IMG/VR virus record: IMGVR_UViG_3300014682_000024 | Location: 1-43,160 of that record | Reading direction: 5' to 3' (one strand) | DNA from: a virus | Lineage: Duplodnaviria; Heunggongvirae; Uroviricota; Caudoviricetes | DNA length: 43,160 bases | Shown: positions 1 through 16,823 of the stretch, one piece after another | How the letters are laid out: each line of letters starts with the position of its first letter | Position numbering within the stretch: position 1 is the first letter of the stretch | Program-made: the position numbers and the translations under genes | Notes under the pieces: model-generated | What the model was told of the DNA's origin: nothing | The model's input: the letters and a program-made list of their open reading frames with translations, nothing else | Database searches by the model: none

Positions 1-546
1 ATGACACGTCTTGCTTTATATATACTATTAGCTTTGCCGTGCCTAAGCTCTTTTTACGTTAACGCGTCTTCTTTACAGGAACAATTAGCGGCTATTGCGC
101 GAGCCGAAAATGAAGGTAAAACCGAAGAAAAACGTATTGAAGATGCACGTAAAGAACAAGAGCGCCAACGTGCCAATGCGGAAAGGATTCGCAAAGAGAA
201 AGCAGCAGCTATGGCAGCAGCAAAAGAAAAACAACGACGAGCGGCTGAGCTTGAGCGTAAGGCTAAGCTCGAAGCAGAAATAGCGGCAGATAAAAAACGC
301 GATCAAGATTATGAAGATCAACTACGCCAACTTGAACTAGAAAACCGAAAACTCGAACTCGAAGCTAAAAGGGCCAGAGTAAATAGAGCAAACGATTTTC
401 TGGACCAAGAACTCAAGGAACGGGCTGCACAAACTGACGTTATTCAATCAGAAGCGGACGCTCGGCGTAATATTTCAACTGGTACCAAAGAATTGTTGCA
501 AAGTGAGGGAAAAGCGAGAGAGAGTAAAGCCGATAGCTGGTGGTAA
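1..546 (+). CDS. Secreted coiled-coil protein (E/K/R/A-rich) with N-terminal signal peptide; moron candidate
   Basis: ORF starts at window position 1. Hydrophobic N-terminus ending VNA, then a long charged heptad-like region. Convergent with the tail genes and separated from them by a hairpin. Confidence 0.4.
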   Translation: MTRLALYILLALPCLSSFYVNASSLQEQLAAIARAENEGKTEEKRIEDARKEQERQRANAERIRKEKAAAMAAAKEKQRRAAELERKAKLEAEIAADKKRDQDYEDQLRQLELENRKLELEAKRARVNRANDFLDQELKERAAQTDVIQSEADARRNISTGTKELLQSEGKARESKADSWW

Positions 547-552
547 TGATAT

Positions 553-574
553 AGTGAGGGGTACCCCCCTCACT
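553..574. terminator. GC-rich hairpin between convergent genes (agtgagggg-tacc-cccctcact); no clear U-tract
   Basis: Perfect 9-bp inverted repeat read directly in the sequence. Confidence 0.35.
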
Positions 575-614
575 ACCGCTATTATATGACAACTTGTTAT
601 TTGCATTTTCTGAG

Positions 615-1193
615 TTAATTACTGCTAATTGCAATCGTTCTAATTGAGCGCAAATCATCCAAGCGGCTCAACTCCTCTTTTATCTCCCGCTGACGACGAT
701 AAATCTCATCGTTGCGCTCGACCTGAGCCTGAGCCATTGCTGCTGCCAGTTCTTCCAATTCCGGCATTGACAGTTTCACCTGTTGATTATCGGCATCACC
801 CCACGCAAGGGCGGTTCGTGTCGTATCCGATTTTGCAGCCATTACTACCGGATAAAGGCGAGCCAGTGAGTCGGGGCCAGCGTTCCAGGTACGTCCGTTC
901 CATTCAAACGTGAAGGGCTGCGCTTCCTGTTCTGTTCGCCACGCCTCGATTTCCCGCTTTTTGGCATCCTTCGCCGTGGCGATAAGTTCAGGTGTGATGG
1001 CAAATGGGGCGATTTCGCCCCATTTGCCGCTCTGTAACTCTTCCCAGATGTGCTGGCCTGTCGGGGTGCTATCGTCCTGCACAGCGGTATACGGGACGAA
1101 TTCCGTTTCACCCTCAAATAACACCTCGCAGTCAACCGCACAATTTTCGAGATAATGGGCGTTTCTGACGCCTTTTACCGCTCTGATTTTCAT
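615..1193 (-). CDS. Putative tail fibre assembly/chaperone protein
   Basis: Lies immediately downstream of the Stf-like fibre gene; W/D-rich central motif (FTFEWNGRTWN, WGDADNQ) as in fibre-chaperone families. Confidence 0.45.
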   Translation of the reverse strand: MKIRAVKGVRNAHYLENCAVDCEVLFEGETEFVPYTAVQDDSTPTGQHIWEELQSGKWGEIAPFAITPELIATAKDAKKREIEAWRTEQEAQPFTFEWNGRTWNAGPDSLARLYPVVMAAKSDTTRTALAWGDADNQQVKLSMPELEELAAAMAQAQVERNDEIYRRQREIKEELSRLDDLRSIRTIAISSN

Positions 1194-1206
1194 GTTTTAT
1201 TCCCCG

Positions 1207-4200
1207 TTACTCGATGCGCACAAACAGGCAGATACGACCGCTTGTTCCGTAAGAGTCCCTGACCCCGGATAACGCCATATAACGCCCCGGAAAAGGGTAC
1301 CCTGTTGCTCCTGCACTTGGTGTTGAACCGTAAGAGCCAGGCCCTGCAGAAGATATTGTGCACGAAAGATTAACCCCGCCCAGTTGTGACCCTGGCACCA
1401 CATCACCCAGGCCAATTTTGATTTCTTTATCCCCGGAAGTTGTTCCGCGATAAACAGCAAGCACCGGAACACCCACTGCCGGGTATTTGAAATATGAGCC
1501 TGAGCCTGCCGTTCGGGACAGCAGGAACGCCAGCGAATCGCCATCGTAAATGACAGGGCTTACTGTTGCATTCCAGTTGTTTCCACTCCAGCGGTAAGTC
1601 AGGCGATGAATACTGTGCTCACCTTCGTAATACTGGTTAAAACACAGCAGCGTTTTGAATTTGCGCGTTGTGTCTGACTCGTCGTTATCAAAGGGTGACC
1701 ACATCACATCAATGATGCCGTTAAATTTCGTTGTGCCAACCAGCAGCGTGGAAGAGTCTGCAATACTGACCGCATAACGCCCCGGCGTGGCCTCTTTCAG
1801 CCATTCAGCAAAATCGGCCTGCCCGTTAAATGTCAGGGCTTCGGTGCTGGCAAATGCCTGACCGAATCCATGCATACCGGACAGTGCCAGCCTGCCCTGT
1901 GTGCGGTCGCGGATATCACTCTGGGGTTCCATCGTCGCAGCCGCTTTCAGCTCAAGCTCCGTGCGCATGGCTTCAGGTGTGTCCAGCGCCAGTAATGCGC
2001 GGGCTTTTTCTGACAGCTGCGCCAGTAAAATCCGGCCCTCTGCACTGAAATAAGGCAGTGTGTTTTCTTCCGGTGTTATCTGGCTGACAGCCGTTAACAC
2101 GTCATTAAGCGGTTGTTTACCTGCCAGTGCTTTAGTGACGGTTGTCGCAAAGTTCGGGTCATTACCCAGCGCCGCTGCCAGTTCGTTCAGCGTGTCCAGG
2201 GCTTCCGGTGATGAGCCAACCAGCGCGGCAAGCAGTTTGCGGACAAACGCCGCATTGGCTATTTCAGTGCCTGCTGCGTCATCTGGCGGGGTTGGTGTTG
2301 TCGGTGCTCCGGTCAGTGCCGGGCTTTTCAGGGGCGCGCGTGCTTCAATCTGTGCAATGAGTGAAGCCACATCAACCTTCAGGTTTTCCCAGCCAACCAG
2401 ATACCCATGACCACCAACGTAGCGATTGTAATAAATCTGACCATTAACACCGTAATAAATTACTGCCTTATAGGCCCTGTCATCTGTTGAGCTTTTAGGT
2501 TGTGGCCAGATAATTTCAATAACGCCGTTTGTCTGAATGCCTGGTACCACCACATTTGTGTCCGCAAATACGGTATAACGACCGGGTTTTGCCGTTTTTA
2601 CCCAGCGGAGAAAATCGACCTCTGTTTTAAATTCGGTCCTGTCGCCGCTGGAAAATACTTTCCCGAATCCAAACATGCCGGGAATCGCCAGACGGCCTTC
2701 GGTGCGGTCGTAAATATTCTCCTGTGCATCCTTCTGTGCTGCATTGCCAAGTTGTAGCGTCAGATTCGTCCAGGTGACCGGGGCGGAGATATTATCGCCA
2801 CGAACGGTCATGAGAATCCGTCCGTCTTTTCCAAAAAACAGAACCAGCTTTGTTGCTGTCTGGCTTGTTTTGTCGCCCCAGCCATTATCCAGCCAGATAA
2901 TTTCTGTTATTCCGGTCGTCTCTTCCGTTTGTGTGGAAAAGGTGTAATACCGTCCCGGGTGCAGGTTGTGCGCAGTTCTGGCTACAGTCGCCATATCGCT
3001 GGCAATAATTGAACGCGCTCCGGCGTCCGTCATTCCGTAACCAAATGCACCAGGCAGCGCAACACGGCCTTCCGAGCTGTCGTAAAGGTCTGTCTGAATG
3101 TCCCTTACCGCTGCGCTTTTCAGCTCAAGCTCATTGCGCATGGTTTCCACTGTGGCCTGTGCCAGCAGTGACCGGGCTTTTTCTGACAGTGGAGACAGTG
3201 AAGCATTTCCGTCCTGATTAAAGCACAGAAGATTATCTGCCCGTTCTTCCAGATTACTGATTGCGGTTAACACGTCACTGAGTGGTTGTTTACCCGCCAG
3301 CGCGTTCATGATTGTTGTCGCAAACTCCGGGTCATTGCCCAGCGCCGCTGCCAGCTCGTTCAGTGTGTCCAGGGCTTCCGGTGACGAGTCAACCAGCGCA
3401 GCAAGCAGTTTGCGAACAAAAGCCGCATTCGCTGTTTCCAGACCGGCAGCATCGTCCGGTGGGGTTGGTGTGGTTGGCGTGCCGGTGAACGCCGGGCTGT
3501 CCAGCGGCGCTTTTGTTTTCGTTTCGTCCATGACGGCTTTGACGGCTTTTGGTGTGGCTGCCAGTTCTTCGCTGTCGTTGTCTGTATCACTACAGAGTTG
3601 CACCAGACCTTTTTCTGTCGTGGAAGCATTGCTTCCCTTCAGGTCATCAACTATCCGTTGCGCCTCGTCCCTGTGCTGTTTCGCGTTCTGCTCGCTTTTT
3701 GCTGCCGCTTCGGCGCTGGCTTTTGCCTCACCGGTCAGCGTTGCGGCATCAGCAAGTTTATCGACCGCTTTCTGGACTATCTTATCGGCATCTTTGACCG
3801 CCTGTTCTGCCCGGGCGGCATCCTGTGTGGCAGATGATGCCAGCTGTGCCACCTGCTTTTTATCTTCGGCAACGGATTCTGCATTCTGCTGTACGTTATC
3901 CGCCAGCGTCTGGCAATCCCCCTTAATCTTCTGCGCATCAGCGACATGTTGCCCGGCCTGTCGTTCGCTTTCCGCTGCCGCTTCCGCGCTCTGCTGCGCC
4001 TGCGCCACCATTTCCTCAAAGCGTTTCACTACATCCGGCTTTAAATCGCCTTCATCAAGGGCAGTCAGAAAGTCGTTCAGCGTGCCGGGCTTTGAATCGT
4101 CGTAAACCGAAATATCACCAACACAATATTCTCTTTCAATACATGACCGAAGATAAACGTCATATCTTCCGGTCTGAGCCTCAAATGCATATTCTCCTGC

Positions 4201-4335
4201 CGGCCCCGTCACCACTGTTGCCACCGTTCTCATGACCACTGCGGATGTATTCTGTCGGGCTTTCAGAATAATATGGTATCCGGACATGGGGAGTCCCGTG
4301 CCATCCGTCAGCACACCCGAAATTAATACAGACAT
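1207..4335 (-). CDS. stf: Side tail fibre protein, lambda Stf-like, with an internally duplicated central domain
   Basis: N-terminus (ISGVL.DGTG...KAR.N...TLNDFL) and central block (LAATPKAVK..MDET..KAPLDSPA.TGTPT...LNELAAALGNDP.FATT...ALAGKQP) match the lambda Stf pattern; the central block occurs twice. Confidence 0.8.
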   Translation of the reverse strand: MSVLISGVLTDGTGLPMSGYHIILKARQNTSAVVMRTVATVVTGPAGEYAFEAQTGRYDVYLRSCIEREYCVGDISVYDDSKPGTLNDFLTALDEGDLKPDVVKRFEEMVAQAQQSAEAAAESERQAGQHVADAQKIKGDCQTLADNVQQNAESVAEDKKQVAQLASSATQDAARAEQAVKDADKIVQKAVDKLADAATLTGEAKASAEAAAKSEQNAKQHRDEAQRIVDDLKGSNASTTEKGLVQLCSDTDNDSEELAATPKAVKAVMDETKTKAPLDSPAFTGTPTTPTPPDDAAGLETANAAFVRKLLAALVDSSPEALDTLNELAAALGNDPEFATTIMNALAGKQPLSDVLTAISNLEERADNLLCFNQDGNASLSPLSEKARSLLAQATVETMRNELELKSAAVRDIQTDLYDSSEGRVALPGAFGYGMTDAGARSIIASDMATVARTAHNLHPGRYYTFSTQTEETTGITEIIWLDNGWGDKTSQTATKLVLFFGKDGRILMTVRGDNISAPVTWTNLTLQLGNAAQKDAQENIYDRTEGRLAIPGMFGFGKVFSSGDRTEFKTEVDFLRWVKTAKPGRYTVFADTNVVVPGIQTNGVIEIIWPQPKSSTDDRAYKAVIYYGVNGQIYYNRYVGGHGYLVGWENLKVDVASLIAQIEARAPLKSPALTGAPTTPTPPDDAAGTEIANAAFVRKLLAALVGSSPEALDTLNELAAALGNDPNFATTVTKALAGKQPLNDVLTAVSQITPEENTLPYFSAEGRILLAQLSEKARALLALDTPEAMRTELELKAAATMEPQSDIRDRTQGRLALSGMHGFGQAFASTEALTFNGQADFAEWLKEATPGRYAVSIADSSTLLVGTTKFNGIIDVMWSPFDNDESDTTRKFKTLLCFNQYYEGEHSIHRLTYRWSGNNWNATVSPVIYDGDSLAFLLSRTAGSGSYFKYPAVGVPVLAVYRGTTSGDKEIKIGLGDVVPGSQLGGVNLSCTISSAGPGSYGSTPSAGATGYPFPGRYMALSGVRDSYGTSGRICLFVRIE

Positions 4336-4359
4336 GTTTATTTCCTGATTCAGAAAACA

Positions 4360-5448
4360 TTAACCAAAATAATTGACGCCTTTTTTCTTGCCACTGGCTT
4401 TCCCCTTTGCAGAAATATCCGTGGTCAGTGACAGATTCAGCGTAAATCCCTGTCCCGGTACCAGTGAAAACTCCACAGACTCAGCCTGCCAGTGATGGTC
4501 CTCACGCACACCAAATCCCTGCGTGACAAAACGCATCTCCGCCCCTGCTTTCAGCAGTTCCGGCCTGCAGGGCAACGTTATCGTCATCTGGCGTCCGGCT
4601 TTCTGCACACGTTTAACCTTCGACTCTGCACAGTGTTTTGCGGTGCCCTGGTCAGGCTGGGTAAACGGATGCCGCTTATCTGTTGACTCCACGTCAACTT
4701 TAACTTCACGTGTGCGTCCGTCACGGGCATCAAAATACCGGACCCCAACTTTCCCGCTCTTTTTATCCCCCTTCGCACCACCCGCAGCGCCCTGTCGCTC
4801 ACCTTCACGATAATCCCAGTCTGATACCATACCCGGCGTAATGGTTATCTCAGGCGCATTTCTGCCCCCCGTACTCTGTGATGCCCCGTATTCCAGAAAT
4901 AACCAGTAGCCATTGGTCGGTTTACTGGTGGCGCCGTACATACCTGCAATGCGGGACAAGAGAGCAGCATCAGATTCTGATGACTGCATCACCCACGGGA
5001 TATGAATATCAGCAAGCACCGATGAGACGCGCGCCACCAGATTATTTTCAGTGGCGATGGTTTTCACCAGGTCGCCCAGTGTGATATCGCTGAAAGCCCG
5101 GGTTTTCAGTGCGGTCACGTCTGCGCCATGTTTTGACGCATTCATGGGGGCTGCGGTGGCATAAATGGTGAGCCGGCGGGGAGGACCACCGCTTGCCACC
5201 TGACAGACGGTAAAACTGCCTTTATTGACCAGATTTCCGTTGAACCCCAGTCCCAGCGTTAGCACCGCGCCTTTCGGTGGTAACGCCAGCGTCTCGCTGA
5301 ACAGCGTTATCATCAGTTCATCGGACCGCTTTGTGCCAGCACCATTATCGGTATATCGCAGTTCAGCCAGCCCCCGTTTTAGGGCCTTCGTGATATCCTG
5401 GCCTTCCGCTGTCAGGCTGAAATCCGGCTGATATTCATTCAGTCCCAT
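4360..5448 (-). CDS. Tail protein D (P2 gpD / late control D family)
   Basis: Size and position at the end of the contractile tail cluster after U and X. Confidence 0.7.
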   Translation of the reverse strand: MGLNEYQPDFSLTAEGQDITKALKRGLAELRYTDNGAGTKRSDELMITLFSETLALPPKGAVLTLGLGFNGNLVNKGSFTVCQVASGGPPRRLTIYATAAPMNASKHGADVTALKTRAFSDITLGDLVKTIATENNLVARVSSVLADIHIPWVMQSSESDAALLSRIAGMYGATSKPTNGYWLFLEYGASQSTGGRNAPEITITPGMVSDWDYREGERQGAAGGAKGDKKSGKVGVRYFDARDGRTREVKVDVESTDKRHPFTQPDQGTAKHCAESKVKRVQKAGRQMTITLPCRPELLKAGAEMRFVTQGFGVREDHHWQAESVEFSLVPGQGFTLNLSLTTDISAKGKASGKKKGVNYFG

Positions 5449-5657
5449 AACTGATACGTCTCCTTCACTTCCGGTTCATATACCCAGTCCGGCAACACGA
5501 TTTCCACTCCCGCCGGATAGACCGGACCAAGGTCAGCCAGTCCGGGATTGGCTTCCAGTACCGCCGCCAGTGACTGGTTAAGCCCGGTACTGCCATAGTG
5601 TCTCTGGCAGATGTCATCCAGCATATCGCCGTCAGTGGTCCGCCAGTTTTTCGCCAT
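5439..5657 (-). CDS. Tail protein X (P2 gpX-like, LysM-like)
   Basis: 72 aa; motif GDMLDDIC.RHYG...VLEANPGLADLG...LPD...LW as in gpX. Confidence 0.75.
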   Translation of the reverse strand: MAKNWRTTDGDMLDDICQRHYGSTGLNQSLAAVLEANPGLADLGPVYPAGVEIVLPDWVYEPEVKETYQLWD

Positions 5658-6126
5658 AGTATTTCAGCTCCAGTGTGAACGTTTTGTTCTTCGGCGCACC
5701 GCCGGGAAGAAAGGACGTGGTGTTATCTGAATAGGCGGTTGCCACGAAATACCCCATCACATCACCTGTGCTCGAGACCAGAAGATGCGGGGCCGGATTG
5801 TCATCCACCATCTGAACCAGTGTATCAAGGGCATCCATTCCCACACCGTCACGAAATCCCGCGTGCGCCATACCTTCAAGGGTTATTGTTCTGGCCCCCT
5901 TGCCGGTATACTGCAGCAGATCGTTTTTTCCGATAAGCTGTTGTTCATCCCATCGCCATTCCATCGTGCGCTTCATGGCGTTATAAGCAGCAGTATCAAT
6001 ACTGAATTCAAACTCACCAAACGACAGCATGACGCGGGAGGCGACATCCGTTAATGATCCCACCGCGTCCCATGCTTCACGCTCAAGCCGGTTTACGCCC
6101 CAGCCCAGCAAATCCACCATATTCAC
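5632..6126 (-). CDS. Tail protein U-like
   Basis: Position between tape measure and X/D as in P2 and R-pyocin clusters; size about 164 aa. Confidence 0.55.
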   Translation of the reverse strand: MNMVDLLGWGVNRLEREAWDAVGSLTDVASRVMLSFGEFEFSIDTAAYNAMKRTMEWRWDEQQLIGKNDLLQYTGKGARTITLEGMAHAGFRDGVGMDALDTLVQMVDDNPAPHLLVSSTGDVMGYFVATAYSDNTTSFLPGGAPKNKTFTLELKYYGEKLADH

Positions 6127-7775
6127 CCCCAGAATGCCTCGCCATCGGTCATGCGGGAACGCTGACCAAAATGAATATCTCCCAGATTTTTCGTTACCCT
6201 GTCAGCCAGTTGTCCGGCATCCTCGCCAGGCTTCTGAGTGATGTTAAATTCCGCCCGTATCTGATACGTGGGTTTTACTTCCACCTGGCTGACACTGCCG
6301 GGGGTATACTGAAGAGCCGAGAGAGGATCCGAATTACCCTGCCCCTGAACTGCTGCAGGAAGTCCGTCAATATAGGTGCGGGATTTCTCTTTTATCGCCT
6401 TAAAATCAGGTTCTTCTTTCGGCCCCAGCAGAGGGTCGAGAAATGCATCAAACTTTTTATCGTCATGATTCCAGGGGAGATAACCGCGGGTGTCTTTATA
6501 GGCCTGTACAACCTGTTTTGTCAGGTCAGGATTTTGCCTGAGCAGTTCATCAAACCATTCACCCTGACCGTTTTTCTGCGCCACTGCTCTCGCCAGCTCC
6601 GGCGACCCCATTTTTGCCAGATACTCCAGCACTTCCCGTCGGTCCTCTCGCGGATCATCCGCCAGCCCCCACTCAATGGCTTTTTGTGTAATTCCGGCAA
6701 GAACTTTTCCAAATTTCCACATCCAGGCAGCCATGTCGATCAGCGCCGGCAGGGCATCATCACGAATAAATGCCCGGATTTTTTCCAGCCCACCATTCTT
6801 AAACCAGGCCGCAAGGTCATCCGTCACCTGTTGAATATGTGGGGCAAGTTCATTACCCAGCTGTCCGCTGATTTCATCAATGGAAGAACTCAGAACATTA
6901 CGGAGATTTGACAGTGCCACATGTCCCTGAACTGCGCCATCAGCCCCTGCCTTTGTCACCAGGTTATAGCGTTTCTGCTCACTGATAAGCTCCCGGTAAG
7001 TTTTCCCTGACAGACGCATCCAGGTCAGAATTTTATTGGCCTCACCACCGAACAACGCATCTGCCATCCCGGCTGCCACCTGTTCATTCTCTACCTGCAG
7101 TAAGCGATCAAATAAAAATTCGACCTGCTCCTGGTTACTTTTCCCTGCCATAACCCCGGCTTTCAGTCCCAGTTTGCCAAAGACCTCCTGAATGGCCCCT
7201 TTATCCGTGGCACCATTATCATCGTCAAAAACCTTGTTCCGGTACTCCTCAAACAGATCACCGATGTTTTCACCGTTCAGCCCCATCAGTCGGGCCAGAG
7301 AATCCCATGACGCATAGGTTTCATAATCCACCCCATAACTGCGGGCTATCCCTGCTCGCTCTGCCGTCTCCGTATTCCGGTTAAGCACAGCGGCAGTGCC
7401 CGCTGCCAGCGTCAACCCGGAACCAACCGAAAGCCCAAAACCGGTTTTAAGGATCGTCCCCGCCCGCCCTTTCCAGCGTTCCAGGCGTTCCGCACGAGCC
7501 AGTTTACGGTTAAATTTGTCCTGTTCTCCGGTGGCATCATGAATTTTTTTACCCAGCTTTTCATACTGCTTTCGCAGATCAGTAATATCCTGTCCAGCCA
7601 GTACGCCAGCCTGAATTTTTCGTTTCAGTACGTCCTGCTGGCGTGTCAGACGAGCCACTTCCTGTGTTGCCCCTGATAATCCGTGCTTCAGTCCATCAAC
7701 CGATTTTTTCCACGACGGATCTATCGTGCCTCCGATCCGGATATTCGCTTTAAGGTTATCGCCCACCGTTGCCAT
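6123..7775 (-). CDS. Tail tape measure protein
   Basis: Long alpha-helical protein directly after the E/E' chaperone pair; start codon overlaps the E' stop. Confidence 0.75.
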   Translation of the reverse strand: MATVGDNLKANIRIGGTIDPSWKKSVDGLKHGLSGATQEVARLTRQQDVLKRKIQAGVLAGQDITDLRKQYEKLGKKIHDATGEQDKFNRKLARAERLERWKGRAGTILKTGFGLSVGSGLTLAAGTAAVLNRNTETAERAGIARSYGVDYETYASWDSLARLMGLNGENIGDLFEEYRNKVFDDDNGATDKGAIQEVFGKLGLKAGVMAGKSNQEQVEFLFDRLLQVENEQVAAGMADALFGGEANKILTWMRLSGKTYRELISEQKRYNLVTKAGADGAVQGHVALSNLRNVLSSSIDEISGQLGNELAPHIQQVTDDLAAWFKNGGLEKIRAFIRDDALPALIDMAAWMWKFGKVLAGITQKAIEWGLADDPREDRREVLEYLAKMGSPELARAVAQKNGQGEWFDELLRQNPDLTKQVVQAYKDTRGYLPWNHDDKKFDAFLDPLLGPKEEPDFKAIKEKSRTYIDGLPAAVQGQGNSDPLSALQYTPGSVSQVEVKPTYQIRAEFNITQKPGEDAGQLADRVTKNLGDIHFGQRSRMTDGEAFWG

Positions 7776-8201
7776 AACGTTGCTTCCTCTCTTCCGACTC
7801 CGCCAGCATCATTGCCACAAAATCCGTATACGGCAGCGCCATCACATCTCCGGGAGACCACCCGAACCAGGCACCGGCGCGCCGTATCGCTGTCAGGATG
7901 CTTTCTTCTTCCGCCGGACCGGCGGCAACAAAAAAACATTAAACTGACGCTCCAGGGCCAGGTAATCACACGCTTCCATGTTCATCATGTCCGCCGCGTC
8001 CATCCCGCACAGACCGGCGATCATATCCAGATCAGCCTCTGCTTCCGGTTTGGTACTCCGGCGATGCAACAGACGATCGCGGACGGTGGGCGCACGCATG
8101 GTGACGTGCGTGATCGTCTGTCCGGATGCGGTGACATACGGCACGGATAACACAATTTCCACGCTGCTGGCAGGAACGCTGTTTTTTTCCGACATAAGCA
8201 T
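7756..8201 (-). CDS. E+E' fusion produced by programmed -1 frameshift (slip at about 7929-7935)
   Basis: Slippery heptamer T TTT TTG on the coding strand; the -1 frame stays open to a TAA at 7756-7758 overlapping the tape-measure start. Confidence 0.55.
7893..8201 (-). CDS. Tail assembly chaperone E (P2 gpE-like)
   Basis: About 100 aa ORF between tube and tape-measure genes containing a G TTT TTT G slippery site; likely true start is the internal ATG near 8195. Confidence 0.75.
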   Translation of the reverse strand: MLMSEKNSVPASSVEIVLSVPYVTASGQTITHVTMRAPTVRDRLLHRRSTKPEAEADLDMIAGLCGMDAADMMNMEACDYLALERQFNVFLLPPVRRKKKAS

Positions 8202-8204
8202 CTC

Positions 8205-8235
8205 CTTTAAAAAAGAAAAGGCGGCCTGAGCCGCC
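8205..8235 (-). terminator. Rho-independent terminator-like hairpin between tube gene and E
   Basis: ggcggc-ctga-gccgcc stem followed on the minus strand by a U-rich run. Confidence 0.45.
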
Positions 8236-8254
8236 TGAATGACAGGATCCCGGA

Positions 8255-8773
8255 TTAAACCCGGATGATTTTTTTCAGATCCGCCAGAACATTAACGCCA
8301 TTAATACGACGTACAAACTCCTCCGGAATAATGCAGATGGTTTCCAGGCCATCGACAGCCTGACGGTAATAACTCAGTGACATTTCCACTGTCACCGAAG
8401 CCTCTGCCTGTGATGTTGCCGGACGTGCATCCGGCGTGATACTGGTGATCATCCCCTGCAGGGTTTCCACCTGTCCGCTGGTCGCATTTCCCACCCGATA
8501 AGCCTGACGCACAACAATCTCCGGCGAATAAAGCCCGGCCTGCAATCCCAGCAGCGTAAGCATGGCAACATCATAACCATAAATCTTAAACGAACAGGTC
8601 AGCGCTTCCATGCCGTCATCCACTGCCACCGGTGCATCCATTGCGCCGGTTTTGATATCCACTGTCGTGATATTAATGGCAGGCGGCGTGTATTCATGCG
8701 CACCCTGAAGGCGGATCCCGCCAGGAAGAAATAACGCCCATGCGCGCAACAGTTTTTTTTCACCCGTAATCAT
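8255..8773 (-). CDS. Tail tube protein (P2 FII-like)
   Basis: About 170 aa protein immediately after the sheath gene with 4-nt overlap. Confidence 0.75.
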   Translation of the reverse strand: MITGEKKLLRAWALFLPGGIRLQGAHEYTPPAINITTVDIKTGAMDAPVAVDDGMEALTCSFKIYGYDVAMLTLLGLQAGLYSPEIVVRQAYRVGNATSGQVETLQGMITSITPDARPATSQAEASVTVEMSLSYYRQAVDGLETICIIPEEFVRRINGVNVLADLKKIIRV

Positions 8774-10245
8774 ACCGTCAGTTCCTCCAGCGCCAGTTTA
8801 TTGTTAATCATTGCCCGCAGTGTCAGGCGCTCCAGTGGTGACTTCGGCCCAAAGTCATAATCGATATACAACTGCCCTGCCGCCAGGGTTTCAGTTGTAT
8901 TCAGTTCATCATTCAGCCAGGCGCTGCCACCGTGGATCGCACCCAGATTTTTAAGCTGACGCATATAGGCATTAATGCTGCCAAGAATGTCGTCTGCCAC
9001 ATCCCGATCAAGCGGGCGATCGACATAAGGCAACATGGCCTCCTGGATACTGTCCTCAATCACATCTGCAGTGCGGCGTACCGGCTCAAAGCGCCACTGA
9101 CTGTGGGATGTGCACAGACGGTTCCCCCAGTGTTTAAAACCGTCATGGCGAATAATGGTGGAAATGTTTTCCATGTTCAGCAGGTTTGCCGTGCAGTTCT
9201 GCTCCCCGAGAATAAACGTATCCACCTGCTCCAGACCGGTGATATTCATCACGTTCTGGTTTGATTTGGACCACCACCACCCTTTTTCGTAATCAATACG
9301 GGCACGCAGCCCGGCAGCACGAGCCGAATATGGACGAAATATCGTTTGCCCGCTGTCATCCGTCACTGACACGCGCGGACGCAGCAGCTCCACACGCCCA
9401 CCAAATGACGCGCGCCGCTGAACCACATCCTGCGGCGTTGCCATTGAGGGCGAGTCAATATAGGCCACAGCCCGCAGCTTCGCGGCATACGTTTCCAGCG
9501 CCTTTGCCACGCCATCATCCTCACTGTACCCCGTGGCAATGAGGATGCGCGGTTGATAGCCTGTCACGCCCTTACTTTCTGTCAGCGCCTCCATGGCCTG
9601 AATCACCGCCGCACGCTGTTCGGCCTCTTTCGCCTTTGTTTTGCTTTCCGCACGCACCACAATCACCAGCGCACCGGTCTGGTCAAAAATATCACGCAGG
9701 GCCGGATATAATGTCCCGGCTGAGCCCAGTTTCCCGGCCTGAGTAATGGCCCCTGCCACCACCACCGGTGTATTGACCGGGAACGCCTCATCCTCCCCGC
9801 CGGATAACGTCAGGCTGAACGGCGACACCACATTATTTTCAGCGCTTCCTGCATTCAGGGCACTGACAGCCGCCGTCACAGGCGAATCCCCCAGCGCATT
9901 CACCACTTCAGTCACACGGTCCGCCGTGGCGTTAATCTGGCTGTGTTCGTCCGTACCCAGCGTTATCGTCAGGGTTGTGCCTTTCAGCGATGCCGCTGTC
10001 TGCGCGTTTTGTTCTGTGGCAGCCACAGCAACAACCGAAATCTTATTACCGGCCCGACCTTCCTGTTTCGCCGTGAAATCCAGCGCCGTTCCCAGCAGCC
10101 AGGAGCCGGCTGTGCCGGAAGCGCACACACCACCAGAGGCGTCCGGCGCTGTCCCCACCAGGCCAATCACCGCCGTGGAGATGGTCTGCACGGCAACCGT
10201 GCCTGTCGTCAGTTCAATGGTTTCAACACCATGTAATCCGGACAT
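8770..10245 (-). CDS. Tail sheath protein (P2 FI-like) with an extra N-proximal insertion
   Basis: 491 aa; position and conserved C-terminal sheath-like region. Confidence 0.75.
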   Translation of the reverse strand: MSGLHGVETIELTTGTVAVQTISTAVIGLVGTAPDASGGVCASGTAGSWLLGTALDFTAKQEGRAGNKISVVAVAATEQNAQTAASLKGTTLTITLGTDEHSQINATADRVTEVVNALGDSPVTAAVSALNAGSAENNVVSPFSLTLSGGEDEAFPVNTPVVVAGAITQAGKLGSAGTLYPALRDIFDQTGALVIVVRAESKTKAKEAEQRAAVIQAMEALTESKGVTGYQPRILIATGYSEDDGVAKALETYAAKLRAVAYIDSPSMATPQDVVQRRASFGGRVELLRPRVSVTDDSGQTIFRPYSARAAGLRARIDYEKGWWWSKSNQNVMNITGLEQVDTFILGEQNCTANLLNMENISTIIRHDGFKHWGNRLCTSHSQWRFEPVRRTADVIEDSIQEAMLPYVDRPLDRDVADDILGSINAYMRQLKNLGAIHGGSAWLNDELNTTETLAAGQLYIDYDFGPKSPLERLTLRAMINNKLALEELTV

Positions 10246-10254
10246 ACATTTCTC

Positions 10255-10280
10255 CCATAAAAAAACCGCCCTCAGGCGGT
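10255..10280 (-). terminator. Terminator-like hairpin upstream of the sheath gene
   Basis: accgcc-ctca-ggcggt stem followed by U-tract on the minus strand. Confidence 0.45.
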
Positions 10281-10299
10281 CAGATGATTAACTTCTTTT

Positions 10300-10842
10300 T
10301 CAGGTATTTTGTGGCTGCTCAGGCCAGCTAATATTGTTGTAAGTGGTCTTATCCGTAATAGCTCTGAAATCCATCGCCTGCAGCGATTTCGCGTAAATGC
10401 GGTACGCTTTCAGCTTCTCCCTGTCTTCGTCACTGATTAATCCCAGCAGCAGGTCTTTTTCCCATTCGCTGGTCATGATGCTGACCTGTTTTAACCGGGC
10501 ATCGCGCTCATCTTCCGCTTTAAGTTTGTAGTCGAAGACAAATTTATCGTCGCGGTAAAACCAGTAACCAGGCACGGTAATACGGCGGTTAGCGGTAATA
10601 TCAGGAACTTCAATAACACTGGCGTTACGGGGTTCAATGCCTGTCACATCCTTACCGACCCACACCACGCGCCCGTCTCCGGTGTAAACCATTTTTATGG
10701 TGTCACTGGCAAAATTTTTCAGCTCTTCATACCAGTTTTTGTCATCTTCCGAAAAAAGCCAGGTGATACCATGTTGTTTTGTCATCTGATATTGTTCTGC
10801 GGTTTTCGGATTGCCTGCAGTAATATTTTTTAAATGCAACAT
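10300..10842 (-). CDS. Tail fibre assembly protein (P2 gpG / lambda Tfa family)
   Basis: 180 aa directly downstream of the H-like fibre; C-terminal Tfa-like motif ending ...ISWPEQP. Confidence 0.65.
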   Translation of the reverse strand: MLHLKNITAGNPKTAEQYQMTKQHGITWLFSEDDKNWYEELKNFASDTIKMVYTGDGRVVWVGKDVTGIEPRNASVIEVPDITANRRITVPGYWFYRDDKFVFDYKLKAEDERDARLKQVSIMTSEWEKDLLLGLISDEDREKLKAYRIYAKSLQAMDFRAITDKTTYNNISWPEQPQNT

Positions 10843-10844
10843 TG

Positions 10845-12272
10845 TTAAACACTCGCCACGTTATACCAGGTGCCGTTAATCAGTTTCTGAAGCGGTCGGT
10901 AATACACGCCGCCGATGTTATCTGCCGAATTACTTCCGGTTTCCTGCACATTAATACCGGATAACCCGTGGCCTGAAGGTGAGCGAAATGTCCAGGATAC
11001 CTGGTTACCTCCCGGGTTGTAATACATTTCGGAACCATAACGCACATCCTGCACGCCGCCATTTCGCTGCTGATAACGGGCATCGAAATTTCCATAGTTT
11101 GATGGGGTCATCTGTCCGTTTACAGCGAATGTGATACTGCCATCGGTATTTCTCTGGCTGTAAAAATGCCAGCCGGAATCATCACCAAGCTCTGCAACTA
11201 CAGGTCGGGATGAATTACCCCATAAATTAAACGTTGCGTTTTTCGTGGAGTTGTTGGCGCTGGATAACGTGAATTTTTTAGCATTTCCGGCCTGAATATT
11301 TTTTAACGCTATCGCCACACCATTCTGGAAACGAAATACATGCTGTCCATTCGCATAAACATCCAGAATGCCGTCGCCGTTTTGTTTTATACCTGTATCG
11401 TTATCCCCGAAAGCAATTGAGTTTCCGCCCAGCGCGTTCTGAACGCCGATACCCAGCGCACCATTGACCTGAGAACCGCAGCCAACAGACACTTTATGCG
11501 ACATGGATATTTCACCCGTCCGCAGATTAATAGTGAACGGTCGAAGTGGACCAATATCGCCATTCTCGCCCTGACCTTCACTGGTAGGGATAAGGTGCAG
11601 GCACTCTTCCGAACGACGAAAAATCAGACCAAAGGCTTCGTTGAAAATCCTCAGCGCATTAACACCACGGATTTTCAGTTCCCCGGTCATGGTGTCACCA
11701 TCACGCTGAACGGCATTTTTTGCCTTGTCCACCGTAGGTTTTAATCCGAGGTTTTCAACAGCCTCATCCTTGTCTTCCACATCCGAAAGATTCTTTTTTC
11801 GTTGCAGATAGCGTCTGTCTCCGATTTCCTGAGTAATAATGGCCCTGTCCGGATCAACTTCCAGCACCACGTTTTGTGCGTGCGTCAGCCCAAGAACCAG
11901 CGTCAGAATAACTTCCTTGATAACGGAGTCTGTCTGGTCTGGTAAAAAGGTGTCCGGATAACGTCCGTACGCGATAAGCGTACCTCTGTCGCTGATCATC
12001 CCCAGTTCACGAAGGGTTTTACCGGGGTATGATTTACAGTCAATCACAATATCCCCGCTGATGAAGCCCTCCTCCACCGCACCGTCGGAAAAGGGTTCCT
12101 GCCCGAATTCGCCGTACAACGATGTCATTGCTGCCATTTCATCCGGCGTGGATGGCAATGCCCGCCCGCCCCCGTCACCAAGCAGAACATGCCGGACGGT
12201 CACGGTTTGCCCGTTCTGATATGCTGCTTCAATTTCTGCAGCGCCGGACGTTGTCAGAATCAGTCCATTCAT
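10845..12272 (-). CDS. Tail fibre protein (P2 gpH-like)
   Basis: Position after I; collar-like N-terminus and G/N/S-rich C-terminal receptor-binding-like region. Confidence 0.7.
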   Translation of the reverse strand: MNGLILTTSGAAEIEAAYQNGQTVTVRHVLLGDGGGRALPSTPDEMAAMTSLYGEFGQEPFSDGAVEEGFISGDIVIDCKSYPGKTLRELGMISDRGTLIAYGRYPDTFLPDQTDSVIKEVILTLVLGLTHAQNVVLEVDPDRAIITQEIGDRRYLQRKKNLSDVEDKDEAVENLGLKPTVDKAKNAVQRDGDTMTGELKIRGVNALRIFNEAFGLIFRRSEECLHLIPTSEGQGENGDIGPLRPFTINLRTGEISMSHKVSVGCGSQVNGALGIGVQNALGGNSIAFGDNDTGIKQNGDGILDVYANGQHVFRFQNGVAIALKNIQAGNAKKFTLSSANNSTKNATFNLWGNSSRPVVAELGDDSGWHFYSQRNTDGSITFAVNGQMTPSNYGNFDARYQQRNGGVQDVRYGSEMYYNPGGNQVSWTFRSPSGHGLSGINVQETGSNSADNIGGVYYRPLQKLINGTWYNVASV

Positions 12273-12859
12273 ACACCTGCCTCACTCTGCCCGCCTGTGG
12301 GCACTGTCTTTGTTGTCACACCGGTACTTCTGATTTTTTCTGTCGCCATCACATAGCCGTAACCAAATCCACGCCCTGTGCTGTTCCCGTAAACGTGAAT
12401 ACTGAACCAGCTGCGCAGATTTTTGGCACGGAGCACCGCATGCTTCAGATCCTGATGATCATTCATCAGCACCGGTAAATCCTTCTGCTCCACGTTCAGA
12501 CGAAAGGTATACGGCTCCCCGGGTGGGGTCTGCTCATACCACTCAACAATCTGCGACCGGAAGGGACTGTCAGCCAGCGATGCCATCAGCGCCGCTTTAG
12601 TCCCTCTGTGGCGGTGGATGTAAGCAGCACGTTTTATCGCAGACCTTTTTTCCGTCTCCGTCCAGTGTTCATTCCAGGTATCCACCGCCATTTCCCAGGC
12701 CAGCCATGGCAGCAATTCAGCAGGACATAAATCGGGATTTTTCACATAGCGGATCAGGCAGACCGCTATGTCTGACAGCATATCTCCGGCGACACAGTCC
12801 ACCACCCGCTCTGCCCGGCTGGCACTGACCGGCAGTATGCTCCTGATATCGTCATTCAT
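12269..12859 (-). CDS. Tail protein I (baseplate, P2 gpI-like)
   Basis: About 196 aa between J and H. Confidence 0.65.
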   Translation of the reverse strand: MNDDIRSILPVSASRAERVVDCVAGDMLSDIAVCLIRYVKNPDLCPAELLPWLAWEMAVDTWNEHWTETEKRSAIKRAAYIHRHRGTKAALMASLADSPFRSQIVEWYEQTPPGEPYTFRLNVEQKDLPVLMNDHQDLKHAVLRAKNLRSWFSIHVYGNSTGRGFGYGYVMATEKIRSTGVTTKTVPTGGQSEAGV

Positions 12860-13766
12860 CAGTTGTCTCCACCTTATTCAGCGTTACCTTACGGCACCAC
12901 GGTGCCTGCCCCATCGCAGGAACGATATCACTGCCCGGAGAGGTCAGATTCACCGTAATCACCCCGGTCTGGTGAAGGGCACCATCCATGCCAGAACGGG
13001 ATGCCACCGAGCCAATCCGGTGGACGCTGTCAGTGTATGACTGCAGCGCCTTGCGGGCATTTGCCATAACCAGTTCACCATCCAGTCCGTAGGGAATATG
13101 AATATCCGCCACCACATCGTAGGGAATAATTTCTGCCGTCCGGACACTGACAAAATCCGTCAGGGGACGGGTTTCATCATCACAGACTGATGCTGCCACC
13201 TTATCCAGCAGGGGTTGTGATGCAGTGCCATTTCCGGACCGGGATAACACATAAAGAAAAACACGCCCTTCCTGTGAATGCGTTTCCGGCCCGTAAGCCT
13301 TCACATCCAGCACATCAGGATCAGCACTTTGCGCAAAATAGTGGTACGCATTTTTCGCACCGGCGGTGCTCAGCCGTGCCCATGACAACTGGATACGTTC
13401 GCGAAAAGCGTCATCATCTTCATACACCGCAGGCGTGGGCGGAATGGTGCTGTCATCTGCCGGGGTAATCACCAGACGCTGCACCTGAAAATTCGCACCA
13501 ATCTGATCCAGGTCGTTCCTCCGGGCACTCGCAAGCAATACACCCCGGACAGCATCATTGACCTGCTGGCGCATCAGCGCCACGCGAAAAGCCAGCGCCT
13601 CTGCCCATTTATACGCCGGATCGGATTCCACCAGGGCCGAAAACAACGTGTCCAGCTCCTGATACTTCGTCACTATCTGAGTGACCAGCACAGCAGTGTC
13701 CGGCACCTCCACCGCATCCGGTACCGGTATCGCAGACAGATCAATAATTGCCTGAGATGTTGCCAA
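12852..13766 (-). CDS. Baseplate assembly protein J
   Basis: About 304 aa; N-terminus (IDLS.IP.PD) resembles P2 gpJ; in the V-W-J-I order. Confidence 0.75.
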   Translation of the reverse strand: MATSQAIIDLSAIPVPDAVEVPDTAVLVTQIVTKYQELDTLFSALVESDPAYKWAEALAFRVALMRQQVNDAVRGVLLASARRNDLDQIGANFQVQRLVITPADDSTIPPTPAVYEDDDAFRERIQLSWARLSTAGAKNAYHYFAQSADPDVLDVKAYGPETHSQEGRVFLYVLSRSGNGTASQPLLDKVAASVCDDETRPLTDFVSVRTAEIIPYDVVADIHIPYGLDGELVMANARKALQSYTDSVHRIGSVASRSGMDGALHQTGVITVNLTSPGSDIVPAMGQAPWCRKVTLNKVETTDE

Positions 13767-14097
13767 TTTTTATCTCCTCGAGTCGAATCGTATCCTGAGT
13801 TTCGTTATTCACCCCGACAAGCGTCAGCCACGCGCTTCCTTCTCCTGTCCACGTCACTTCCACCCGCCGGAGAGTCAGGCGGGGTTCCCAGCGTTCAAGG
13901 GCGGTTACCGTTTCGCGAACAATTCTCACCCGCGTGAAATCATCCTGTGGGTTATCAAGCAGACTGAAAAGTCTGCTGCCGTATTCCCTGAGCAGGACCC
14001 GGCTGCCGACCGGTGTTGACAAAATATCAGTGACGGACTGGCGCAGATGTTCGTTACCGTGCAGATATCTGCCGGTGGCTGAATCAATACCAATCAT
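13741..14097 (-). CDS. Baseplate protein W (GPW/gp25 family)
   Basis: 118 aa between V and J. Confidence 0.7.
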   Translation of the reverse strand: MIGIDSATGRYLHGNEHLRQSVTDILSTPVGSRVLLREYGSRLFSLLDNPQDDFTRVRIVRETVTALERWEPRLTLRRVEVTWTGEGSAWLTLVGVNNETQDTIRLEEIKIGNISGNY

Positions 14098-14130
14098 GTT
14101 GTTTATTCCGGAAAAAGAACTGAAAGGAGA

Positions 14131-16773: not shown

Positions 16774-16823
16774 CACATCTCTCCCGTGCGCTAAAGAAAA
16801 AGGCGGGAATATCCCGCCTGACC

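Follow-up and report, generated by a model that had tools for sequence, protein, structure and literature searches.

The two fibre sets in the tail cluster

The window (the whole stretch of 43,160 nucleotides analysed here) is a lambdoid E. coli prophage that combines head genes of lambda type and a Q antiterminator with a contractile tail in P2 gene order. The contractile-tail cluster contains two complete sets of fibre plus chaperone genes, as proposed in the first-pass annotation, whose domains were recognized by Pfam, PHROG and structure matches, the Pfam matches of the fibres and helpers exceeding chance by a wide margin. All genes of both sets are located on the minus strand.

553-574, no strand: perfect 9-bp GC-rich hairpin, AGTGAGGGG-GGTA-CCCCTCACT, read directly from the sequence
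615-1193, minus: helper 2, DUF4376 protein, 192 aa (PF14301, E 1.3e-16, over aa 74-176)
1207-4335, minus: fibre 2, 1042 aa (PF08400 "prophage tail fibre N-terminal", E 1.8e-55; PF03406, E 5.5e-15)
4054-4335, minus: fibre 2, Stf-type N-terminal collar domain (aa 1-94)
Fibre 2, aa 95-240: Ala/Gln-rich helical rod
Fibre 2, aa 238-277: PF03406 repeat
Fibre 2, aa 271-521: module A
Fibre 2, aa 527-652: knob B
Fibre 2, aa 662-926: module C
1210-1548, minus: fibre 2, C-terminal tip (aa 930-1042)
2084-2337, no strand: 254-nt direct repeat, copy 1, collar motif of module C (82% identical to 3257-3510)
3257-3510, no strand: 254-nt direct repeat, copy 2, collar motif of module A
4360-5448, minus: gpD-like tail/baseplate hub protein, 362 aa (phrog_52, E 1.2e-95)
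10264-10281, minus: terminator-like hairpin and T-run between helper 1 and the sheath gene
10300-10842, minus: helper 1, Tfa-family tail-fibre assembly chaperone, Mu U-like, 180 aa (PF02413 Caudo_TAP, E 1e-22)
10845-12272, minus: fibre 1, 475 aa (PF12571 tail-collar N-terminus, E 4.1e-14)
12269-12859, minus: gpI-like baseplate wedge protein, 196 aa (PF09684 Tail_P2_I, E 2.4e-35)

Set 1 (fibre 1 and helper 1) occupies the canonical gpI-gpH-gpG position, with gpJ (PF04865) and gpI (PF09684) upstream of fibre 1, whose start overlaps the end of the gpI gene, and the sheath gene downstream of helper 1. The hairpin behind helper 1, whose 7-bp stem includes 5 GC pairs and precedes TTTTTAT, marks the end of a V-W-J-I-fibre-helper operon, as in P2.

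Set 2 (fibre 2 and helper 2) is appended downstream of gpD and within its operon, which agrees with the earlier placement of a second pair after gene D. Only 24 nt without a terminator separate the gpD stop from the fibre 2 start codon, which is preceded by a GGAA ribosome-binding site, and 13 nt lie between the fibre 2 stop and the start of helper 2, which has a GGGGA ribosome-binding site. The 553-574 hairpin, where the genes of helper 2 and DUF5384 converge, is the probable end of the late operon. The gpD protein, encoded by the final canonical tail gene, matches PF05954 weakly (E 5.6e-5) and is 50% identical to a tail protein of Hafnia phage yong2 and 48% identical to tail formation protein D of Citrobacter phage Chris1.

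Composition of the fibres and their helpers

Fibre 1 (phrog_6859, E 1e-140) consists of a P2 gpH-type N-terminal baseplate anchor (aa 4-148) followed by a Mu S-like shaft and receptor-binding tip. The tip matches the solved Mu tail fibre S (5yvq_A, E 5e-21), and fibre 1 also matches the short tail fibre 9cuy_c (E 4e-17), while helper 1 matches the solved Mu U (5yvq_B, E 1.4e-36). Set 1 shares with Mu S/U and P2 H/G the PF12571 anchor after gpI, a Mu S-aligned tip and a Mu U-aligned helper with a variable N-terminus and a conserved C-terminus. However, neither the invertible G-segment nor the alternative S'/U' pair of Mu was found at set 1.

In fibre 2, modules A and C are 53% identical. Any two of the three knobs share 35-41% identity and align with scores of 151-194, whereas shuffled sequences average about 28 (standard deviation 4-5). 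The two copies of the 254-nt repeat inside the gene are spaced by 1173 nt, which equals 391 codons, and are therefore in frame. The tip was modelled with moderate confidence (pLDDT 73.6); it has conserved scaffold positions, and entropy is highest at aa 990-1009 and 910-929. When the C-termini of both fibres were compared with solved structures, fibre 1 found its counterpart in Mu S, but no receptor-binding domain or fibre matched the fibre 2 tip.

Residues 1-93 of fibre 2 match the lambda Stf N-domain (9e7m) with E values of 1.6e-17 and 1e-18, and the homologous domain of Ur-lambda Stf is 47% identical over 93 aa. Both proteins also contain a PF03406 repeat and a "...DTLNELAAALGNDP..." collar motif, and both genes lie at the 3' end of the late operon with a small helper gene next. 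On the other hand, no match was found between the fibre 2 tip and the Stf C-terminal region described as gp37-like, and the lambda Stf helper is a Caudo_TAP protein whereas that of fibre 2 belongs to DUF4376. The label "lambda Stf/Tfa-like" given to this pair therefore fits the N-terminal anchor and collar motif, but neither the tip nor the helper.

The fibre 2 anchor also resembles the collar spike gp40 of Vibrio phage XM1 (7kjk; aa 1-195, E 1.3e-8), in which the N-terminal Ig-like domain and the Ala/Gln-rich coiled coil are homologous to fibre 2 while the distal parts are unrelated. XM1 has a contractile tail, as in the window, and gp40 sits on its neck, binding the neck proteins gp4 and gp5 (PMC10457771). 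Sequence comparison found no relatives of the XM1 neck proteins among those of the window, and no docking partner for the Stf-type anchor was identified.

Helper 2 (phrog_1141, E 1.8e-85; AF2 model pLDDT 81) gave no convincing match to solved structures. Its assignment as a lambda Tfa or Caudo_TAP protein was rejected on the PF14301 match and on a profile-profile comparison with the conserved C-domain of Tfa proteins, in which there was no alignment and no homology was detected. It is presumed to be the cognate chaperone of fibre 2. According to previous studies, DUF4376 proteins are fibre chaperones experimentally required in Alteromonas phage V22 (PMC7289586), and such a helper is experimentally required for fibre function in Campylobacter CJIE1 (PMC7882524). 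In both V22 (gp26/gp27) and CJIE1 (H-fibre), the gene immediately downstream of the fibre encodes, like that of helper 2, a protein of about 190 aa that carries a DUF4376 domain at its C-terminus (PMC7289586, PMC10579305, PMC7882524). Unlike those phages, where the DUF4376 helper serves a single baseplate fibre, the window pairs DUF4376 with a second, Stf-anchored fibre and Tfa with the baseplate fibre.

Occurrence and variation among relatives

The two-set layout, whose rarity the first-pass annotation had implied, is not new; it is an ordinary one, present in sequenced phages and many E. coli genomes. The same four genes occur in phiP27 (L54-L57), Rac-SA53 (tail1-tail4), vB_Apl-pPE4 (gp67-gp70) and an E. 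coli W prophage at uspF, at the end of the tail cluster and in the order found in the window (baseplate fibre, Caudo_TAP helper, PF08400-anchored fibre, DUF4376 helper). Rac-SA53 tail3 is 74% identical to fibre 2 over its full length, pPE4 gp69 is 81% identical over aa 1-463, and the counterparts of helper 2 and of the fibre 1 shaft and tip are 69-77% and 63-75% identical, respectively; in phiP27 L54, residues 159-475 of fibre 1 are matched at 65% while the N-termini differ. All four are contractile-tail genomes, the sheath being annotated in phiP27 and detected in Rac-SA53. Their two sets are adjacent and their baseplate genes come last in the tail cluster, whereas the window follows P2 gene order, with set 1 in mid-cluster after gpI and set 2 about 6 kb away after gpD, and its fibre 1 has a P2 gpH-type anchor, unlike theirs.

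Both fibre genes of the window are intact, being neither truncated nor frameshifted, and at least 24 NCBI assemblies encode an identical fibre 2 protein flanked by unchanged neighbours. Five related E. coli prophages, assigned by their flanking host genes to four insertion sites (two prophages at ompW/yciE), all carry both sets intact. Among them, the first 150 residues of fibre 1 are 99-100% identical and its last 100 residues 51-99%; for fibre 2 the corresponding values are 93-97% (first 225 residues) and 32-97% (last 105 residues). The two tips assort independently of each other: in SC407 the tip of fibre 1 is unchanged and that of fibre 2 differs, and 52F4 shows the opposite pattern. In helper 1, identity over residues 1-100 ranges from 60% to 100% in step with that of the fibre 1 tip, and is constant at 98% over residues 101-180. 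For helper 2, the one informative relative, with a fibre 2 tip at 32%, has the N-terminal 70 aa down to 60% and aa 71-130 still at 93%.

Two probable receptor-binding fibres and the alternatives

Conserved anchors, divergent and independently assorting tips, and helper N-termini linked to the tips together support two working receptor-binding fibres. The best explanation, to which we give a probability of roughly 0.65, is that the virion carries fibre 1 at the baseplate and fibre 2 as an accessory side or collar fibre; we infer that both are mounted on the virion. The earlier suggestion of "dual or switchable" specificity is thus supported, as the best reading, in its first half, and finds no backing in its second.

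It is unlikely, though conceivable, that set 2 is a passenger, acquired from another prophage through recombination at the late operon's recombination-prone end, still expressed but unmounted or without effect, so that fibre 1 alone sets host range. Set 2 is present in none of 18 relatives of the window's tail from other enterobacterial species, and yong2 and Chris1, the isolated phages closest to the window, each have a single set. At the BLAST level, the window has only the four fibre and helper genes in common with the four-gene-set phages, and since no further tail protein is common to them, no common docking partner is visible. E. coli SA53, which holds both Rac-SA53 and a window-like prophage, offers an opportunity for exchange. 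However, 71 of 5,426 complete E. coli genomes retain the junction of gpD with fibre 2, with a single gpD lacking the fibre 2 start among the matches listed, and the fibre 2 anchor subfamily recurs on three other contractile backbones (66-84% identity). Furthermore, the anchor is conserved while the tip diversifies, without a frameshift in the fibre genes of six lineages; unused genes would decay, which argues against a passenger. Slightly less probable is that fibre 2 forms collar fibres at the head-tail junction that would serve mainly for assembly help, environmental sensing or fibre 1 retraction, like T4 fibritin, and not for recognizing receptors. Its N-domain is homologous to that of the neck-binding XM1 gp40 (PMC10457771), and Shigella phage Sf14 has two sets of neck whiskers besides its fibres (PMC11821841), but the tip is hypervariable and assorts independently of fibre 1, a dedicated chaperone co-varies with it, and the homologous lambda Stf binds the receptor OmpC (PMC12617516).

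Alternation of fibres or tips by programmed DNA rearrangement or phase variation seems highly improbable. Mu and P1 alternate their fibres via an invertase, and so does Chris1, a distant relative which has an invertase as well as an alternative fibre segment in inverted orientation. Homologous recombination between the copies of the in-frame 254-nt repeat could remove or double a module of 391 codons, and the relatives' fibre 2 proteins are between 664 and 1061 aa long. In the window, however, no invertase gene was found, no recombinase gene adjoins either fibre, and neither inverted repeats flanking the fibre segments nor a gix-like AAACCNNGGTTT core was found. The sole homopolymer of at least 8 nt in 1-13000 (8753-8760) is not in a fibre gene, neither significant tandem repeats nor slippery repeats were found, and both sets have the same orientation in constitutive late operons.

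Under the preferred reading of two mounted fibres, the P2 gpH-type N-terminus of fibre 1 would plug into the gpI/gpJ wedge, and its Mu S-like tip would be folded by the Tfa chaperone encoded downstream. Fibre 2 would be an accessory fibre added at the end of the sheath-to-gpD operon, its N-domain being that of lambda's ring-forming side tail fibre, followed by a helical rod, three related knobs and a small variable tip, with helper 2 predicted to act as its chaperone. Laboratory lambda lost Stf and kept its viability, so such side fibres can be dispensable. In a contractile tail the sheath covers the tube, and lambda's docking site is therefore unavailable as such. In lambda, StfN rings the gpV/gpM junction of a non-contractile tail (PMC12617516), whereas the window's tube is sheathed. 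Fibre 2 may instead form a ring at the neck in the manner of XM1 gp40, or its docking site may lie at another position on the tail. According to a previous study, Ur-lambda StfN is a 12-mer collar and the side fibres speed adsorption (PMC12617516). Two fibre types per tail, proposed to bind different receptors as we propose here, are also found in Sf14, T5-like DT57C and T4 (PMC11821841), which differ in being virulent and in having unrelated fibre proteins, both Sf14 fibres being on the baseplate. Like Stf in Ur-lambda, fibre 2 would probably establish a rapid and reversible initial contact; fibre 1 would link binding to the triggering of the baseplate. To judge from the sequences, the two fibres probably let the prophage bind two different receptors, with the two specificities acting together rather than by switching.

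Two fibre sets in a contractile tail cluster

The window encodes a contractile tail, as genes for sheath, tube, gpU, gpX, gpD, gpW, gpJ, and gpI are present, and the genes of the tail region are all located on the minus strand and follow the P2 gene order when read along transcription. The first-pass annotation placed two complete sets of tail fibre and helper (presumed fibre chaperone) in this cluster. Its coordinates were exact, domains were identified for both sets, and both are intact in the window as well as in all five of the related E. coli prophages compared below.

Features of the tail cluster and its downstream end (coordinates, strand, description)
13741-14097, minus, gpW
12852-13766, minus, gpJ
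12269-12859, minus, gpI (PF09684)
10845-12272, minus, fibre 1 (475 aa), its start overlapping the gpI stop
10300-10842, minus, helper 1 (180 aa)
10264-10281, terminator-like hairpin between helper 1 and sheath
8770-10245, minus, sheath
8255-8773, minus, tube
7893-8201, minus, gpE-like
6123-7775, minus, tape measure
5632-6126, minus, gpU
5439-5657, minus, gpX
4360-5448, minus, gpD
1207-4335, minus, fibre 2 (1042 aa), starting 24 nt past gpD
615-1193, minus, helper 2 (192 aa), starting 13 nt past fibre 2
553-574, GC-rich hairpin with a perfect 9-bp stem
1-546, plus, DUF5384 gene (E 1.5e-42), convergent to helper 2

The rest of the window is lambdoid, including repressor, CII-like protein, O/P-type replication genes, Ren, Q-like antiterminator, and lysis genes, and the head genes are of lambda type (Nu1, A, W, B, C, D, E, FI, and FII). 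A tailocin was rejected because these head and packaging genes are complete. The major head gene (16824-17852, minus strand) and the FI-like gene (16408-16905, minus strand) share about 80 nt according to the ORF list, and a single family, phrog_2353 (481 positions), covers both, with the 342-aa product at positions 1-314 and the 165-aa product at 317-481; the two products may be fused, or joined by a frameshift, in some phages. A lone gene for a 267-aa protein (24457-25260, minus strand) is located in a low-GC island (about 44%) between the lysis genes and the small terminase. The whole length of its product matches the K88/F4 fimbrial subunit family (PF02432, E 2.5e-46), and no match was obtained in PHROG or PADLOC; the gene appears to be prophage cargo that encodes an orphan fimbrial subunit.

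Set 1 agrees with its description as a P2 H/G-like pair in the canonical baseplate position. Fibre 1 has a tail-collar N-terminal anchor (PF12571, aa 4-148, E 4.1e-14) and, as with P2 gpH/gpG, its gene directly follows gpI. Its shaft and tip (the C-terminal receptor-binding end) align with the Mu tail fibre S in three stretches, C-terminus included (5yvq_A, E 5e-21), and it also matches a solved short tail fibre (9cuy_c, E 4e-17). Helper 1, encoded downstream, is a Caudo_TAP protein (PF02413, E 1e-22) that aligns with Mu U (5yvq_B, E 1.4e-36), the Tfa of the Mu S co-crystal. As in Mu S/U, a homologous tip is thus combined with a downstream Caudo_TAP chaperone of variable N-domain and conserved C-domain, and set 1 is identified as a conventional pair of P2 H/G or Mu S/U type.

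Architecture of fibre 2 and its DUF4376 helper

The N-terminus of fibre 2 is a PF08400 domain (E 1.8e-55), which matches the N-domain of lambda Stf as resolved on Ur-lambda (9e7m, E 1e-18, 47% identity). In addition, aa 1-195 align to residues 1-186 of gp40, the collar spike on the neck of Vibrio phage XM1 (7kjk_A3, E 1.3e-8), so the two proteins have a homologous N-terminal Ig-like neck-binding domain. The remaining part of fibre 2 is built from repeated modules.

Modules of fibre 2 downstream of the N-terminal domain
aa 95-240, Ala/Gln-rich helical rod
aa 238-277, PF03406 repeat
aa 271-521, module A
aa 527-652, knob B
aa 662-926, module C, 53% identical to module A
last ~110 aa, C-terminal tip

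The three knobs of fibre 2 share 35-41% pairwise identity, with alignment scores of 151-194 versus a shuffled mean of about 28 (sd 4-5). The duplication is also visible in the DNA, as a 254-nt direct repeat (82% identical) with a spacing of 1173 nt, which is exactly 391 codons. An AF2 model of the last 243 aa, of moderate confidence (pLDDT 73.6), predicted an alpha/beta knob followed by a beta-rich tip. This model had no fold match in the PDB at E<=0.001, and in a BFVD fold search it matched only predicted proteins named 'tail fiber repeat' from phages Goslar and Av-05. Across 40 aligned tip homologues, the scaffold residues are conserved, while variability is highest in the stretches aa 990-1009 and 910-929. 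In NCBI records of E. coli and Salmonella, many fragments of this tip (P0004, P0006, P0010, P0011, and others) carry the name 'shikimate transporter, partial', evidently a wrong annotation of a phage tail-fibre C-terminus that has been propagated.

Set 2 had been described as lambda Stf/Tfa-like, which holds for the Stf-type N-domain and fails for both the tip and the helper. The collar domain is common to fibre 2 and lambda Stf; however, Stf has a gp37-like distal shaft and tip, whereas fibre 2 showed no sequence match to a gp37-type or Stf-type C-terminus. Moreover, the lambda side fibre is mounted at the tube/tip junction of a non-contractile tail, in contrast to the contractile tail of the window.

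Helper 2 matches a single Pfam family, PF14301 (DUF4376; aa 74-176, E 1.3e-16), whereas lambda Tfa belongs to the Caudo_TAP family. The DUF4376 chaperones of the V22 gp27 type likewise have a C-terminal PF14301 domain and about 190 aa, and their gene immediately follows the fibre. A previous study stated that DUF4376 and Tfa are homologous (PMC7882524), which was not reproduced by our profile-profile comparison: when a 75-sequence DUF4376 profile was compared with a Tfa profile in hhalign, nothing aligned over the conserved C-domains, and just 50 N-terminal columns did, at 4% identity. By these comparisons, helper 2 is classified as a DUF4376 protein and not as Tfa. A sequence search of the PDB with helper 2 was empty. 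In its AF2 model (pLDDT 81), a small beta domain at the N-terminus precedes two successive helix-hairpin units and a final long helix. The PDB fold that matched this model best is prefoldin beta, an archaeal chaperone (E 0.11, probability 0.97, target TM 0.56), and Mu U was not returned by the search; the prefoldin match is not significant, and it would be only a suggestive parallel for a fibre chaperone. Experiments on two systems, Alteromonas phage V22 (gp27; PMC7289586, PMC10579305) and the CJIE1 prophages of Campylobacter (PMC7882524), showed that their fibres do not function without the DUF4376 protein. For helper 2, such a requirement is supported indirectly by the divergence of its first 70 aa alongside a divergent fibre 2 tip, described below. 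One family, phrog_11571, matches both the N-terminal part of helper 1 and the C-terminal part of helper 2, which suggests that natural chimeras of Caudo_TAP and DUF4376 helpers exist.

Variation, proposed switching, and origin of the second set

The five E. coli prophages compared have the tail of the window, with sheath identity of 97-99%, and occupy four sites according to their flanking host genes, namely near ompW/yciE (SC407 and 52F4), near tRNA-Ser/hyaA, near ssrA, and within a fimbrial usher gene; the window copy itself is located near zinT. Relative to the window, fibre 1 is 99-100% identical over its first 150 aa and 51-99% over its last 100 aa, and fibre 2 is 93-97% identical over its first 225 aa and 32-97% over its last 105 aa, with a total length ranging from 664 to 1046 aa. 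The helpers vary in a corresponding manner. Helper 1 shows 60-100% identity over aa 1-100, tracking the fibre 1 tip, and 98% over aa 101-180; helper 2 falls to 60% over aa 1-70 in one relative, the one with the 32%-identical fibre 2 tip, and keeps 93% there over aa 71-130. These patterns agree with the published model for Tfa, in which the fibre-binding N-domain varies and the C-domain is conserved. A conserved anchor (the N-terminal docking domain), a diversifying tip, and a co-varying helper would be expected of working receptor-binding proteins in both sets, and both fibres are very probably functional. The two tips assort independently among the five relatives: SC407 combines the fibre 1 tip of the window with a different fibre 2 tip, 52F4 is the reverse, and ETEC6335 has the fibre 1 tip of the window together with a phiP27-like fibre 2 tip.

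The suggestion that specificity is switchable was not upheld. No recombinase or invertase gene is present near either set (positions 1-13000), and both sets are co-oriented and located in late operons. The four inverted repeats found are only 20-29 nt long, with 76-86% complementarity, and no fibre C-terminus or helper gene lies between the arms of any of them; the gix-like core AAACCNNGGTTT is absent from the whole window, and the fibre genes contain no homopolymer or tandem repeat. The window thus differs from Mu Gin, P1 Cin, and e14 Pin, in which an invertase acts together with inverted crossover sites flanking alternative fibre C-termini and helpers, and from Citrobacter phage Chris1, a distant relative that has an invertase and an inverted alternative fibre segment. 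Here, the sole plausible source of variation is the in-frame 254-nt repeat of fibre 2, through recombination that is not programmed.

By gpD, Hafnia phage yong2 (50%) and Chris1 (48%) are the closest isolated phages; in both, the baseplate and fibre genes are located 3' of gpD. In addition, 18 relatives in other enterobacterial species were considered; a contig scan by alignment gave these 18 loci, and a scan by gpD alone gave none. Set 2 is judged not to be ancestral to this tail, because yong2 and Chris1 each carry a single fibre set, and none of the 18 relatives encodes a protein homologous to the fibre 2 anchor or to helper 2 within flanks of up to 8 kb past gpD where the contig allowed. 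The yong2-type gene order (V, sheath ... D, W, J, I, fibre, helper) was found in 16 of the 18 relatives as well as in yong2 and Chris1, and the P2 order of the window (positions 4360-15000; V, W, J, I, fibre, helper, sheath ... D) in two Serratia prophages; the two orders of this one tail family are a block permutation within homologous tails. Past gpD, the S. proteamaculans prophage is followed by host genes, and that of S. rubidaea NCTC12971 (locus L034, 9121-11163) by a gene for a 680-aa protein and then a 197-aa ORF. The 680-aa protein weakly matches the SASA carbohydrate-esterase family (PF03629, E 1.8e-5, just at the cut-off of Pfam) and may represent a different accessory host-recognition protein in the same slot. 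From the contents past gpD in these relatives, the site looks like an open slot for accessory host-recognition genes, which in the E. coli lineage is occupied by the Stf-type set.

Derivation of set 2 from a neighbouring degenerate prophage was also considered and rejected, given the 24-nt gap to gpD and a junction kept in 71 genomes; it is also countered by the position of the host genes, which start only past helper 2 and two cargo genes. These cargo genes, which lie at the end of the prophage on the strand opposite to helper 2, are the DUF5384 gene (1-546) and, just outside the window (L002, 14348-14860), a gene for a 170-aa glycine-zipper protein with weak Pfam matches to TraT and Rick_17kDa_Anti (surface antigen). 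Past them are the host genes zinT, msrPQ, hiuH, and hprRS.

A recurrent four-gene set and the possible docking of fibre 2

The exact fibre 2 protein is present in at least 24 NCBI assemblies, and the gpD-fibre 2 junction in 71 of 5,426 complete E. coli genomes (coverage >=80%), with one case of gpD lacking the fibre 2 start among the matches listed. The same four genes, encoding a baseplate fibre, a Caudo_TAP helper, a PF08400-anchored fibre, and a DUF4376 helper, also end the tail cluster in phiP27 (L54-L57), in Rac-SA53 (tail1-tail4), in 'Actinobacillus' phage vB_Apl-pPE4 (gp67-gp70), and in an E. coli W prophage adjoining uspF, and sheath genes are present in their backbones. Rac-SA53 tail3 is 74% identical to fibre 2 over the full length, three knobs included. 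The arrangement is therefore a further instance of a set that several deposited phage genomes already contain and that is common in E. coli; because the tail here is P2-ordered, the set is split into two places. A literature search on the fibre biology of phiP27 and Rac-SA53 found nothing useful.

The recorded host of vB_Apl-pPE4 (PP818812.1, our L008) is Actinobacillus pleuropneumoniae. At DNA level, its fibre and helper genes are 87% identical to genes of E. coli prophages, and it is laid out like Rac-SA53 and the E. coli W prophage; the host attribution looks doubtful. The source strain given for Rac-SA53 (KU052037.1) is E. coli SA53, and strain SA53-3 (NZ_CP076279.1) has a window-like prophage in its genome (81% of the query at 93.6% identity). 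If SA53 and SA53-3 are the same lineage, one cell has two contractile-tail prophages with related fibre sets, which would be an obvious setting for fibre exchange.

Apart from the fibre and helper genes, BLAST found no tail protein common to the window and the other phages with the four-gene set. The N-terminal anchor of fibre 1 differs per backbone, sharing starting only at about residue 159-188, and is swapped to suit each baseplate. The anchor of fibre 2 is kept, with 66-84% identity among the contractile-tail phages versus at most 48% to the best of the sampled remaining matches, those listed being mostly Stf genes of lambdoid prophages or phages. It forms a subfamily on four unrelated contractile backbones (the P2-ordered tail of the window; phiP27; Rac-SA53 with pPE4/E. 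coli W).

Fibre 1 would be mounted on the gpI/gpJ wedge, coupling receptor binding to baseplate triggering, and fibre 2 would form a ring via its N-domain and make the first, reversible contact with a second receptor, as Stf does on Ur-lambda. In Ur-lambda, twelve Stf N-domains form a collar, and the side fibres speed adsorption 10-30 fold (PMC12617516). Another contractile phage with two fibre types is Sf14 (PMC11821841). The lambda site at the tube/tip junction would not be exposed on a sheathed tail, and the solved precedent for an Stf-type domain on a contractile tail is the neck, as in XM1 gp40 (PMC10457771). When the three neck proteins of the window were searched against PDB sequences, no XM1 chain (gp4/gp5) was matched; their best matches are lambda gpFII (E 2.5e-6) and the pyocin collar PA0615 (E 0.09). 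Fibre 2 might alternatively be attached to the baseplate, or branch from a shared fibre 1 shaft.

The Stf-type N-domain could be a backbone-independent 'plug-in' adaptor with which a second fibre rides on any contractile tail, a tentative reading to which we give roughly three chances in ten. Since the backbones have no other tail protein in common at the BLAST level, such an adaptor would either self-assemble into a ring around some generic cylindrical part of the tail (neck or sheath) or dock on the shared fibre 1 shaft to give a branched fibre. The E. coli lineage would be tractable for locating the lambda-Stf-type collar domain on a sheathed P2- or Mu-type tail, because 71 of 5,426 complete genomes carry the junction.

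Apart from this docking question, the findings represent routine modular fibre exchange in an arrangement that deposited phage genomes already contain. Among the kin of this cluster, phiP27 comes from an Stx2e-converting host background and Rac-SA53 from an enterotoxigenic strain. If both fibres are mounted, near-identical prophages could differ in host range by shuffling two independent tips, a point relevant to the possible spread of such prophages through E. coli lineages. The plug-in adaptor, if true, would be a portable way to give contractile phages and tailocins a second specificity.
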